Shown piece after piece: positions 4,836 to 37,813 of a DNA stretch of 64,000 bases. The notes under the pieces are model-generated. The model was not told where the DNA came from. It saw only the letters and a program-made list of their open reading frames with translations, and did not search any database. Position 1 is the first letter of the stretch, and every line of letters begins with the position of its first letter. The stretch is from Gemmatimonadota bacterium (GTDB lineage: Bacteria > Gemmatimonadota > Gemmatimonadetes > Gemmatimonadales > GWC2-71-9): NCBI GenBank assembly GCA_022563595.1, contig JADFNB010000007.1, forward strand, positions 14,975 to 78,974, in the 5' to 3' direction. The position numbers and the translations under genes are program-made.

Positions 4836-5237
4836 ATGACGGTGCGAGACGAAGACATCGAGCGAATCGCGGCAGGGCTGGGACGGGAGACGGCCGAACA
4901 GGTGGACGTCGACCGGATCGCCGTAGGCGTGGTGGAGCGTCTCCGCGCGCGCGACGGCATCGAGCGGCCACGCCGGACGTTCCGCTGGCTCGCCATAGCG
5001 GCGGCGCTCGCGCTCGCCGCCGGCGTCACCTTCATGTCGGTACGGACCAGGTCCGTGAGCGAGGGCGCCGAACAGATCGCCGCGGCGCCGCTGCTCGATC
5101 AGCTCTTGGCCGAGGAGCTGGCCGAGGTACTCGATTCACTGTCACTCCGAGCGCCCGTATCGGAGCAGCTTCGCAATGGTTTGGACGATCTCGACGAACG
5201 CCAACTCGAAGAGCTGTTGGCGACCATGGAGGGATGA
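4836..5237 (+). CDS. putative single-pass anti-sigma factor
   Basis: The gene lies directly downstream of the ECF sigma gene. It has one TM segment (WLAIAAALALAAGVTFM) and no zf-HC2 motif. The call rests on position only. Confidence 0.45.
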   Translation: MTVRDEDIERIAAGLGRETAEQVDVDRIAVGVVERLRARDGIERPRRTFRWLAIAAALALAAGVTFMSVRTRSVSEGAEQIAAAPLLDQLLAEELAEVLDSLSLRAPVSEQLRNGLDDLDERQLEELLATMEG

Positions 5238-5707
5238 TGCGCTGGTTGGCAATCCTCGGACTCGCAACGGTATTGGTCGCCCCGGTCCAGGCGCAGGAGC
5301 GGCCGGCGCCCGAGCGACTCCGCGAGCAGGTGATGCGCCGGTTCATGGAGAACTACCGCAACCAGGCCGGTCTGACCGACGAACAGTTTGCACGGTTCCA
5401 AGACGTAACGCGCCGCGCCTGGGAGAGGCGGCGCGAGCTGGAGCAACGCGAGCGGGCCCTGCTACGCGCGTTGGAAGGGCAGATGCGCCCCGGCGTCGCG
5501 GCCGACCAGGACAGTGTGGCCGCGTTGATCGACGCCTTGATCGACGCACAGGCCGCCCGCGTCCAGCACGCCCGGTCCGATCAGGAGGAATACGCGGCGT
5601 TTCTCAATCCCGTCCAGCGGGCACAGATCGTCTTGGCCTGGACGCGACTCGAGCGCCAGATCCAGCAGATCGTCCGGCGACGGATGGAGAACCGCATGAA
5701 TCAGTAG
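5234..5707 (+). CDS. periplasmic Spy/CpxP-like (LTXXQ motif) protein
   Basis: The product has a signal peptide (MMRWLAILGLATVLVAPVQA), an LTDEQ motif and a helical Arg/Glu/Gln-rich body. Its start overlaps the upstream stop (ATGA). Confidence 0.55.
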   Translation: MMRWLAILGLATVLVAPVQAQERPAPERLREQVMRRFMENYRNQAGLTDEQFARFQDVTRRAWERRRELEQRERALLRALEGQMRPGVAADQDSVAALIDALIDAQAARVQHARSDQEEYAAFLNPVQRAQIVLAWTRLERQIQQIVRRRMENRMNQ

Positions 5708-35110: not shown

Positions 35111-35148
35111 GGTACAGGGAACGCGGGACAGGGTACGAGGAGTCGTCG

Positions 35149-35727
35149 ATGCCGTGGATCGAATGGATTGCCGAGGCGGAAGCCACCGGGCGGCTGCGGG
35201 AGCTGTACGACAAATACGCCGGTCGGTTCGGCGTCGACCACATCCTGAAGATCCACTCGCTCAACCCCGACTCGCTGGAACACCACTACTCGCTTTACGC
35301 CCACCTCATGCGGGGGCCATCGAACCTCTCGCGCGCCGAACGCGAGATGATCGCCGTCGTGGTCTCGGTGGCCAACGACTGTTTCTACTGAATCCACCAT
35401 CACGGAGCGGGTCTCCGTCGGCTGTTGCGGGACGAGGAGAAGGCGGCGGCGATCGTGCGGCACTACCGCAGCGCGTCGCTGAGCGGGCGTGAGCGCGCCA
35501 TCTGCGACTATGCCGTTCGGCTCACGACGTCGCTTCCCGCCATAGCCGCCGACGATCTGCGCCCGCTGCGCGAGGCCGGGCTCGGCGACGACGAGATCCT
35601 GGATGTCTGCCAGGTGGCCGCGTACTACAACTTCGTGAACCGGCTAGCATCCGGACTCGGGGTCGAGCTGGAAGGCTATTGGCAGCAACGGGACAACGAT
35701 CCGGTCGAGATCCTCCCAACCTCTTGA
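35149..35727 (+). CDS. carboxymuconolactone decarboxylase/AhpD-like peroxidase-related protein with an in-frame TGA at 35389-35391 (candidate selenocysteine, otherwise a pseudogene)
   Basis: Both halves are in one frame and read ...EREMIAVVVSVANDCFY[TGA]IHHHGAGLRRLL...YYNFVNRLASGLGV. The TGA replaces the second Cys of the family CxxC motif. A GAGGAG SD precedes ATG 35149. Confidence 0.6.
35402..35418 (+). promoter_or_regulatory. candidate bacterial SECIS hairpin
   Basis: ACGGAG-CGGGT-CTCCGT forms a 6-bp stem starting 11 nt after the TGA. The loop G and U fall at +23 and +24 counted from the U of UGA. Confidence 0.45.
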
Positions 35728-35760
35728 CCCCAGCCGCCGAACGGGTACATTCCGTCCTAA

Positions 35761-35787
35761 TTAGCATTCACCCCTGCCGAGTGCTAA
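35761..35787. promoter_or_regulatory. CIRCE element (HrcA operator)
   Basis: TTAGCATTC-N9-GAGTGCTAA compares with the consensus TTAGCACTC-N9-GAGTGCTAA (one mismatch). It lies 54 nt upstream of groES. Confidence 0.85.
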
Positions 35788-35840: not shown

Positions 35841-36155
35841 ATGGCCCCAGCGACGAAATCGAAAATCAAGGGCAAGGTTCAGCCGCTGGCTGACCGGGTG
35901 GTGATCCTTCCTCTGGAGGATACCGAGGAGATGCGGGGTGCGTTGTACATCCCGGACACCGCCAAGGAGAAACCGCAACAGGGTAAGGTCGTCGCCGTAG
36001 GTCCCGGTCGGTTCGAGAAGGGCGAGCGGGTTCCGATGGATTTGAAGACGGGTCAGACCGTGCTGTACGGCAAGTACAGTGGCGCGGAGGTGACGGTCAA
36101 CGATCAGGAACTGCTCATCATCAAGGAATCGGACGTCCTGGCCGTCATCGGCTGA
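35841..36155 (+). CDS. groES: co-chaperonin GroES
   Basis: The product shows [28 protein letters not shown] and YGKYSGAEV. Confidence 0.97.
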
Positions 36156-36178: not shown

Positions 36179-37813
36179 ATGGGAACAGTGAAGGAACTGC
36201 ATTTCGATGTTGCCGCGCGCGCGGGCCTGAAGAAAGGCATCGATCAGCTCGCCGAGGCGGTCAAGGTGACACTCGGGCCCAAGGGCCGGAACGTGGTCAT
36301 CGACAAGAAATTCGGTAGCCCGACCCTCACCAAGGACGGTGTTACCGTCGCCAAAGAGGTCGAGCTTGCCGACCCGGTCGAGAACATGGGCGCACAGATG
36401 GTCAAAGAGGTCGCGACTAAGACCTCCGACGTCGCGGGTGACGGTACCACGACCGCGATCGTGCTGGCCCAGGCCATCTTCCGCGAGGGTCTCAAGAGTG
36501 TCACGGCGGGCGTGAACCCGATGGCCATCAAGCGCGGGATCGAGAAAGCGGTCGACAAGGTCGTCGACGAGCTGAAGAAGATCTCCGTGACTTCCTCGGG
36601 CAAGAAGGAGATCACCCAGGTCGGCACGATCTCGGCCAACAACGATCATGAGATCGGTAACCTCATCGCAGACGCGATGGAGAAGGTCGGCAACGACGGT
36701 GTAATCACCGTCGAGGAGGCCCGCGGGCTCGAGACCGAGCTGGAGACCGTGGACGGCATGCAGTTCGACCGCGGTTATCTCTCGCCGTACTTCGTGACCG
36801 ACCCGGAGAAGATGGAAGCCGTCCTCGAGGACGCCTACGTCCTGGTTCACGACAAGAAGATCTCGGCGATGAAGGACCTGTTGCCGGTGCTCGAGAAGAT
36901 CGCGCAGACCGGCAAGCCGTTGCTCATCATTGCCGAGGACGTCGAGGGCGAGGCTCTGGCCACGCTAGTCGTGAACAAACTGCGTGGCACGTTGAAGGTG
37001 TGCGGCGTGAAAGCGCCGGGCTTCGGCGATCGCCGCAAGGCGATGCTGGAGGACATCGCCGTCCTCACCGGCGGCAAGGTAGTGAGTGAGGAGATCGGCT
37101 TCAAGCTCGAGAACACCGTGCTGGGTGATCTCGGTCAGGCGAAGCGCATCGTCATCGACAAGGACGACACCACGCTGATCGACGGTGGCGGCAAGCAAAA
37201 GGACCTCCAGGGCCGGATCGGCGAGATCAAGGCGGCGATCGACAAGAGCACGTCCGATTACGATCGGGAGAAGCTCCAGGAGAGGCTGGCCAAGCTCGCC
37301 GGTGGTGTCGCGGTCATCAACGTCGGTGCGGCTACCGAGACCGAGATGAAGGAGAAGAAGGCGCGGGTGGAGGATGCCCTCCATGCGACCCGTGCCGCGG
37401 TCGAGGAAGGCATCGTGCCGGGTGGCGGTGTCGCCTTCATCCGCGCTCAAACCGCGCTCAAGAAGATCAAGGTAGCCGAGCCCGACGAGCAGATCGGGAT
37501 CGACATCGTTCGGCGCGCGCTCGAAGAGCCGATGCGCATCATCGCGCTGAACGCTGGTGCCGAGGGCGCGATCGTGGTCGAGAAGGTGCGGGCCAGAGCC
37601 GAGAAGAACTTCGGTTACAACGCGCAGACCAATAAGTACGAGGACTTGGTGAAGGCCGGCGTCATCGACCCCACCAAGGTCACGCGCACCGCGCTACAGA
37701 ACGCGGCATCGGTCGCCGCCCTGCTGCTCACCACCGAGGCCGTGGTGGTCGAGAAGAAGGAGGAGGAGAAGGCGCCTCCAATGCCGGGCGGCGGCATGGG
37801 CGGGATGTACTAA
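36179..37813 (+). CDS. groEL: chaperonin GroEL
   Basis: Full-length match, including AGDGTTTA and the C-terminal GGMGGMY. Confidence 0.98.

Follow-up and report, generated by a model that had tools for sequence, protein, structure and literature searches.

A candidate selenocysteine codon and SECIS-like hairpin in an AhpD-like gene of a Gemmatimonadota chromosomal region

Does an in-frame TGA codon divide an AhpD-like gene into two separate reading frames, or is it read as selenocysteine (Sec) within one gene? The locus that raises this question lies in a 64-kb stretch of Gemmatimonadota DNA (the window, i.e. the whole of that stretch), an ordinary chromosomal region of approximately 66% GC that carries dnaB, an aroA-like gene, nusA-infB-truB and groESL. 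The evidence presented below makes it highly probable that positions 35149-35727 encode one 192-residue AhpD-like thiol/selenol oxidoreductase (TIGR01926), in which UGA-81 would be recoded to selenocysteine. This reading had been put forward as a candidate in the initial annotation of the sequence, and it gained support from the reading frame, the protein family, the occurrence of TGA or Cys codons in the relevant alignment column, the conservation of the locus and the RNA-level constraint acting on a downstream hairpin.

Reading frame and protein family

The two ORF pieces present at this locus had been described as parts of a single frame giving a 192-codon read-through product, and retranslation agreed with this description. 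Positions 35149-35727 of the forward strand form one frame of 192 codons plus a stop, with TGA 35389-35391 as the sole internal stop codon. The translated context of this codon reads ...REMIAVVVSVANDCFY before the TGA and IHHHGAGLRRL... after it. An alignment with 29 homologues placed the ATG at 35149 at the same Met start as in those proteins. The identified features, together with their positions, are presented in Table 1.

Table 1. Position and strand of the features identified in the AhpD-like gene and its immediate surroundings (window coordinates).
Feature	Position	Strand	Remarks
Shine-Dalgarno-like GAGGAG	35137..35142	+	6 nt 5' of ATG 35149; direct sequence reading
AhpD-like (TIGR01926) candidate selenoprotein gene, complete	35149..35727	+	192 sense codons including predicted Sec-81; translation, HMMs, full-length homologues
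Glu66 codon	35344..35346	+	Acidic, invariant; Cys78 follows 12 positions later (E-x11-C); aligns with ERE of 6K40
Redox motif C-F-Y-U (TGT TTC TAC TGA), Cys78 and predicted Sec81	35380..35391	+	C78 invariant in homologues
In-frame TGA, putative Sec codon, residue 81	35389..35391	+	Same in two assemblies; 80/80 loci
His85 codon, four residues past the predicted Sec	35401..35403	+	H85 invariant in both alignments; CAC in 82/82
Bacterial SECIS-like hairpin	35402..35418	+	6-bp stem 35402-35407/35413-35418; 5-nt loop CGGGU 35408-35412
True stop of the AhpD-like gene	TGA 35725-35727	+	

It had been anticipated that gene callers would fragment the gene, and the metagenome calls indeed consist of pieces of 80 and 90 residues. 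The related claim that the residues following the TGA would be lost if this codon acted as a stop also stood, the loss amounting to residues 82-102. However, the restart codon is GTG 35455, preceded by a GGAG-like stretch, and not the TTG at 35425 that had been suggested.

For profile searches, the protein was used with C put in place of U. The NCBIfam model TIGR01926 ("peroxidase-related enzyme") was matched with 159.1 bits (cut-off 81.8); the aligned region runs from residue 2 to residue 172 of the protein and takes in model positions 1-173 out of 178. The protein also matched the Pfam CMD family PF02627 (63.6 bits, cut-off 23) and the NCBIfam AhpD core model TIGR00778 (43.7 bits, cut-off 27.8). 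With both PF02627 and TIGR01926 above their cut-offs, the carboxymuconolactone decarboxylase (CMD)/AhpD-like identity first assigned to the product was corroborated.

The nearest solved structures are 6K40 (the Deinococcus radiodurans AhpD-like protein DR1765; E = 6e-30) and the "uncharacterized peroxidase-related proteins" 2PFX, 2OYO, 3C1L and 2PRR from structural genomics, with E-values ranging to 5e-20 over residues 13-173; those of 6K40, 2PFX and 2OYO are approximately 1e-29 to 1e-30. These proteins have the ERE...C-x-Y-C-x3-H stretch in common with the window protein; they differ from it in carrying Cys at the second position of the motif and in lacking the GAGL peptide that the hairpin described below encodes.

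The arrangement E-x11-C-x2-C-x3-H constitutes the catalytic signature of AhpD. The same spacing, in the form E-x11-C-x2-[C/U]-x3-H, is present in the window protein (E66, C78, U81 and H85). Residues E66, C78, Y80, H84 and H85 were invariant in the alignment with 29 homologues, and E66, C78 and H85 were invariant in both homologue alignments (A1 and A2). Reading of the TGA as Sec would thus restore the complete active site E66/C78/U81/H85.

Conservation of the TGA codon and of the downstream frame

The gene, including its TGA codon, was found to be identical in two independent ENA metagenome assemblies (ERZ24945681, locus L003, and ERZ27267525, locus L004). Inspection of the residue-81 column in the best 120 database homologues revealed Cys in 96 sequences, "W" in 16, "G" in two, "R" in two and "S" in one. 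The predominance of Cys (96/120) in this column therefore upholds the initial view that the TGA replaces the second CxxC cysteine.

One of the "W" entries (P0002, locus L001) was inspected as DNA and contains TGA at the residue-81 column; translation of L001 with genetic code 11 does not give the query. Since plain TGA lies behind this "W" protein, the "W" and "G" residues reported at position 81 in public databases are probably gene-calling artefacts, produced by translating TGA under another genetic code. Standard callers either split the gene or print its TGA as Trp or Gly, and this widespread redox enzyme is therefore systematically misrepresented in public collections.

If the organism used an alternative genetic code, with every UGA read as an amino acid (Trp or Gly), the 16 "W" and two "G" residues among the best 120 homologues would be accounted for. 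Nevertheless, the probability of this explanation is close to negligible, given the plain TGA in L001 and the use of TGA as a terminator in the window. TGA ends eight of the 12 confidently identified window genes (nusA, infB, truB, groES, the aroA-like gene, paaA, the NTP-transferase gene and the AhpD-like gene itself), at positions that fit full-length Pfam domain matches; TAA or TAG terminates the remaining four. Because TGA is an ordinary stop codon in the window, decoding of the internal UGA would have to be site-specific. A scan of the whole window for in-frame TGA codons with high-GC3 flanks identified only the one at 35389 as convincing, although such a scan is not discriminating at 66% GC.

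To examine how widely the TGA form occurs, GTDB representative genomes, a single one for each species, were scanned with a query alignment built from the non-Cys subfamily, and 80 loci were returned. The retrieval pattern lay in the C-terminal portion, and hence the TGA was not selected for. This analysis revealed TGA at exactly the residue-81 column in all 80 loci, and in 82/82 distinct sequences of the Sec subfamily. The loci originate mostly from metagenome-assembled genomes (MAGs) of Gemmatimonadota, Gemmatimonadales and Longimicrobiales; the remaining ones belong to Acidobacteriota, Chloroflexota, Calditrichaceae, KSB1 and Krumholzibacteriia. The best identity of a species representative to the window protein was at most 69%.

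The frame following the TGA remains open for 94-164 codons in each of the 82 distinct sequences. Compared with the window protein, the 80 codons preceding the TGA show a mean amino-acid identity of 0.63 and the 94 codons following it one of 0.55, and the median dN/dS (NG86) is 0.25 upstream and 0.34 downstream of the TGA, with dS near saturation. In 81 other sequences, purifying selection has thus acted to keep the downstream frame, which had been assumed to be part of the gene. Disabling mutations downstream of the TGA in relatives had been named as an observation that would speak for a pseudogene; no second stop was present within 94 codons in any of the 82 sequences.

These results bear on two explanations that do without recoding. 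According to the first, the gene is a pseudogene, or the TGA is an assembly or sequencing error, a TGC or TGT Cys codon having been mutated or miscalled. Such a change needs a single base, callers do report two fragments, and two relatives have AGA or CGA at this site; however, the codon is identical in two independent assemblies and recurs in 80/80 genomes of different species, while the downstream frame lacks a second stop over 94 codons in 82 sequences and evolves with a dN/dS well below 1. This explanation is extremely improbable.

The second explanation assumes a split gene, whose 80-residue N-terminal peptide associates with a 90-residue protein initiated at GTG 35455. Exactly these two products are obtained from gene callers, and the GGAG-like stretch before the GTG could be taken as a sign of initiation there. 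The split arrangement would nonetheless discard residues 82-102, including the invariant H84 and H85 and the GAGL-R segment, which are in frame in 82/82 sequences; it would also cut the protein precisely at a catalytic residue, a point where the relatives have neither gaps nor frame changes. We consider the chance of a split gene to be very slight indeed.

Neither a pseudogene nor a sequencing error nor a split gene accounts for the conserved TGA and the open, constrained downstream frame.

The hairpin downstream of the TGA

A hairpin, ACGGAG-CGGGT-CTCCGT, is located at 35402-35418, its first base being the 11th nucleotide past the TGA. The initial annotation had placed a hairpin here, with G23 and U24 (the U of UGA being nucleotide 1) in its loop, and alignment with the SECIS of E. 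coli fdhF confirmed both the position and the two loop nucleotides. As in fdhF, the structure starts 11 nt past the UGA and corresponds to a minimal upper stem-loop of approximately 17 nt. The fdhF sequence (NC_000913.3, UGA-140) and that of the window have GGTCT at nt 22-26 in common, placed in the apical loop in local folds. The two structures differ in that fdhF has a bulged U17, whereas the stem in the window consists of six continuous pairs with no bulge, and in that the loop comprises 5 nt (CGGGU) in the window as against 4 nt (GGUC) in fdhF.

Local folding of nt 11-34 picked the hairpin at 35402-35418, with a free energy of -7.3 kcal/mol. Folding of 45 nt gave z = +0.64 relative to dinucleotide shuffles, with a minimum free energy structure that does not include the 35402-35418 stem. 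Support for the predicted hairpin is comparative, not energetic.

In 80 distinct sequences, nt 14-19 and 25-30 were paired in 95.4% of the alignment cells. Sliding of the 3' arm by 1-3 nt, which served as a control, reduced this value to 28-53%. The sole frequent change in the stem is the presence of A18 or G18 opposite U26 (41 A-U and 39 G-U). No pair was changed on both sides in a fixed register among these 80 sequences, and the RNAalifold consensus recovered only the inner four pairs, with no compensatory changes and no covariation term. Since RNAalifold found no compensatory changes, classical covariation cannot be claimed. An alignment of orthologues had been suggested as a check of both the codon and the hairpin. 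It bore out the first part, the residue-81 column containing Cys or TGA, but yielded no double-sided covariation of the hairpin in register.

Each of the loop nucleotides G21, G22 and G23 is retained by no fewer than 80 of the 82 sequences. Of the two loop nucleotides that had been singled out as the counterparts of the SelB contacts in fdhF, G23 is kept in 80/82, but U24 varies (T in 45, A in 22, C in nine and G in six of the 82 sequences).

A constraint acting on the RNA was indicated by synonymous codon choice within the hairpin, compared with the same 82 genes elsewhere. The second His codon is CAC in 82/82 sequences (72% elsewhere), the Gly codon is GGA or GGG, never GGC or GGT, in 80/80 (46%), Ala is encoded by GCG in 70/71 (40%), Leu by CTC in 79/82 (35%) and Arg by CGT in 68/79 (9%). 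Fisher p-values for this bias range from 4e-11 to 7e-52; like the other conservation statistics, they are not corrected for phylogeny. The preceding His codon, which lies outside the stem, is CAT in 49 sequences and CAC in 33, and beyond the hairpin synonymous positions are essentially randomised. The fixed third positions are those of stem partners (C15-G29, R18-U26, C27-G17 and U30-A14) or of loop nucleotide G21, and the single free third position, nt 24, sits in the loop. The invariable CAC at His85 is explained by the hairpin, which starts with the last two bases of this codon. More generally, since the hairpin is placed inside the coding region, both the peptide H-G-A-G-L-R and the choice of its codons are fixed.

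Four outliers (L078, L081, L057 and L052) show an altered peptide together with an altered pairing register, and retain a hairpin with a G22-G23 apex. Such register shifts are, as judged from the predicted pairings, a form of structural compensation.

The occurrence of the hairpin-encoded peptide was compared between the Cys and non-Cys forms of the protein. In public translations, G[AE]GL was absent from all 96 Cys forms and present in 19/19 W/R/G forms. Three Cys-form loci were available as DNA controls; two of them (L088 and L089) have no hairpin in the same register, and the third (L087) has a different palindrome further downstream. Because of this distribution (0/96 versus 19/19), G[AE]GL follows the TGA and not the function of the protein, a pattern that would be expected of a bacterial SECIS located in a coding region. 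The hairpin, initially a prediction from a single sequence, is thus supported by the fixed synonymous sites and by its co-occurrence with TGA forms only.

Two relatives carry single-base neighbours of TGA at codon 81, namely AGA (L002) and CGA (L090). These Arg-codon variants keep the SECIS-like element.

Decoding of UGA-81, known relatives and genomic context

The Sec machinery was searched for in the window and in the sequences flanking the related loci. ARAGORN found no tRNA-Sec in the 64-kb window, which represents less than 2% of a genome, or in 60 of the 80 related loci, and Rfam at gathering thresholds likewise detected none in the window. Pfam analysis of the ten window ORFs of SelA/SelB/SelD-like size identified no SelA, SelB or SelD; these ORFs encode DnaB, IF-2, NusA, TruB, EPSP synthase, a CitMHS transporter, PaaA, an NTP transferase, a TonB-plug protein and one protein without a match. 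When E. coli SelA, SelB and SelD were compared by tblastn with the window and all loci, the only matches were to the IF-2 GTPase domain. Overall, selA, selB, selD and tRNA-Sec were found neither in the 64-kb window nor in the approximately 1.3 Mb of flanks of related loci.

Hairpins 3' of stop codons can stimulate read-through. UGA-81 might accordingly be read through without selenium, by Cys-tRNA(Sec) or a near-cognate tRNA, the hairpin acting as a stimulator or pause site, and the result of the machinery searches in the window and the fetched flanks is compatible with such an event. Against this stand the location of the recoded site at a redox Cys, the exchange of Sec and Cys being the rule in known selenoproteins (PMC1088965, PMC1794560), the fdhF SECIS spacing of the hairpin with its G-rich apical loop, which contains GU in the window sequence, and the fact that the AhpD-like family has already been catalogued among selenoproteins. 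Selenium-free read-through is, on this evidence, quite improbable, and recoding to selenocysteine is the preferred reading.

In the well-studied bacterial system, SelB with GTP and Sec-tRNA(Sec) binds the apical hairpin while UGA is in the A site and outcompetes RF2 (PMC9312934). By analogy, the 17-nt stem-loop, 11 nt past the UGA, would offer its G-rich apical loop (G21-G23, with U24 as the next base in the window sequence) to SelB, which would then bring Sec-tRNA(Sec) to the UGA in the A site in place of release factor 2.

The predicted catalytic role of Sec81 is likewise modelled on characterised Cys homologues. In place of the second Cys of E66-x11-C78-x2-U81-x3-H85, Sec81 would be the attacking nucleophile, and a Sec81-Cys78 selenenyl-sulfide may form during the reduction of peroxide or of a partner protein, with Cys78 as the resolving residue. 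These roles are proposed because the second Cys of M. tuberculosis AhpD is reportedly regarded as the nucleophile, activated via a Glu/His relay.

M. tuberculosis AhpD, a lipoamide-dependent AhpC reductase, belongs to the same fold superfamily as the window protein and has the same signature spacing, but its sequence is only distantly related. The pairing with ahpC typical of canonical AhpD was not observed at the immediate neighbours of the window gene (the NlpC/P60 gene and groES). DR1765, the closest solved relative of the window protein, is itself just 12% identical to MtAhpD (PMC8945050). Relatives that have been characterised function as thiol-dependent peroxidases or reductases: D. radiodurans without DR1765 is sensitive to H2O2, and complementation needs the CxxC cysteines (PMC8945050, citing Zhao et al. 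2020).

Selenoproteins of this kind have been described previously. A 2005 study of the Sargasso Sea metagenome introduced AhpD-like proteins (COG2128) with a CxxU motif as a new family of selenoproteins, with 27 sequences and a predicted SECIS (PMC1088965). In the GOS data, "AhpD-like 1" had the fourth-largest number of selenoprotein sequences, with 299 Sec and 902 Cys forms (PMC2398784). The AhpD-like selenoprotein was found in a few sequenced genomes (PMC1794560), and a 2026 review of prokaryotic selenoproteins includes an "AhpD-like protein, TIGR01926, CxxU" (PMC13188914). The window gene agrees with this family in its TIGR01926 assignment, in having the predicted Sec at the second Cys position, in having Cys homologues, and in a stem-loop with an apical G past the UGA. 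There is no essential difference, the window copy being placed in a Gemmatimonadota-like chromosome of approximately 66% GC. By all sequence-level measures, the predicted AhpD-like Sec protein is a member of this known selenoprotein family.

Two further (seleno)protein models, both related and of the AhpD superfamily, were compared with the window protein, which is a member of neither. NF041238 ("AhpD_rel_CFYUT alkylhydroperoxidase-related (seleno)protein") is a related superfamily model whose name contains CFYU, the motif found here; it gave 57.7 bits (cut-off 175), with positions 152-341 of 357, in the C-terminal half of the model, matched. NF053654 ("YciW-related (seleno)protein") gave 23.7 bits (cut-off 310).

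The candidate selenoprotein gene adds one unannotated instance to a known, abundant and functionally uncharacterised selenoprotein family, and does not represent a new class of mechanism. The main practical value of the finding lies in annotation correction. If the TGA is read as Sec, selenium dependence of the Gemmatimonadota-like host would be implied. A search of the open-access literature retrieved no paper on selenoproteins in Gemmatimonadota/Gemmatimonadetes, an absence which says little.

In the window, the AhpD-like gene is located between an NlpC/P60 gene (upstream) and groES-groEL (downstream), and the encoded GroEL is 81-85% identical to GroEL of Gemmatimonadota MAGs. The order NlpC/P60, AhpD-like was observed in 13 related loci, followed by groEL in ten of them. 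Gemmatimonadota is therefore the most likely phylum of the host. An alternative context among the related loci is hutH-hutU.

A broader joint reading of these data is tentative and, in our estimation, rather doubtful. It holds that the gene, with its near-fixed 17-nt SECIS, may be common to most Gemmatimonadota and may have spread together with the SECIS to Acidobacteriota, Chloroflexota, Calditrichota and KSB1; that the hut linkage might point to a specific, undescribed role rather than to generic peroxide defence; and that the minimal SECIS, near-invariant across phyla, could be a natural "portable" SECIS.

Two minor observations concern the neighbourhood of the gene. In Longimicrobiales-type loci, the AhpD-like gene is the first gene of a hutH-hutU histidine-degradation operon. 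In addition, the CIRCE-controlled groESL promoter overlaps the stop codon of the AhpD-like gene.

Hairpin conservation and substitutions at the Sec position

The 17-nt hairpin found at nt 13–30 after the TGA has a near-identical sequence across the 80 related genome loci (L005–L084), which come from MAGs classified in six phyla or more, although SECIS elements and SelB are generally considered to evolve together within a lineage. The near-identity suggests either that the gene has spread horizontally together with its SECIS or that the protein and the RNA are under unusually tight joint constraint.

Two relatives, L002 and L090 (the latter from a 1-Mb contig), carry an Arg codon at the Sec position (AGA and CGA, respectively), each differing from TGA by a single substitution. 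The stem and loop of the SECIS are intact in both, except that the outermost A-U pair alone is missing in L090 (CGC replacing CGT). The Arg codons could reflect recent Sec loss, a miscalled base or a gene copy that is inactive.

The closest Cys-form homologue (P0001, encoded by locus L087) contains a perfect palindromic hairpin, shifted approx. 7 nt downstream relative to the SECIS of the Sec forms. This structure may be a remnant or alternative SECIS that survived a Sec-to-Cys change, or it may have arisen by chance in GC-rich DNA.

Misannotated family members in protein collections

In public protein collections, W or G is printed at the Sec position of several members of this selenoprotein family (P0002, P0003, P0008, P0010–P0012, P0014, P0017, P0023, P0036, P0045, P0049, P0086, P0096, P0108, P0110 and P0119). 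In the single case checked at the DNA level (P0002; locus L001), a TGA is present at this position, and therefore the W/G entries presumably result from TGA being translated under genetic code 4 or 25. Other assemblies show the gene cut into two pieces, 80 and 90 residues long. Such calls and fragments constitute a systematic annotation error affecting many metagenomic entries.

Gene neighbourhood and predicted control of groESL

In 33 of the 80 related loci, all Longimicrobiales-type (e.g. L016, L017, L021–L023, L026, L035, L040, L049, L053, L060 and L084), the Sec-type AhpD-like gene is directly followed by hutH (histidine ammonia-lyase) and hutU (urocanase), approx. 350–640 nt after the TGA, and is apparently the first gene of the operon. 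The Cys form L088 is likewise adjoined downstream by hutH, and the Arg-codon form L090 by hutH and hutU.

The clade of the window differs from this context in its gene order (NlpC/P60, AhpD-like, groESL). In the window, the AhpD-like stop codon is overlapped by a sigma-70-like promoter, downstream of which lies a CIRCE-like inverted repeat. Judging from these sequence patterns ahead of groES, groESL appears to be under its own HrcA-type heat-shock control, and co-transcription with the selenoprotein gene would thus not be required.

Positions of features in the window and in related loci
Feature	Source	Position	Sequence or remark
Sigma-70-like promoter	window	35724–35751	TTGACC-16 nt-TACATT (sequence pattern)
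CIRCE-like inverted repeat	window	35761–35787	TTAGCATTC-N9-GAGTGCTAA; 3′ of promoter, 5′ of groES
groES	window	35841–36155	
groEL	window	36179–37813	
Arg codon	L002	342–344	AGA
Arg codon	L090	inside gene 5001–5498	CGA
Palindromic hairpin	L087	approx. 20–36 nt after TGC codon of gene 451–1065	GAGCCTCCGGAGGCTC
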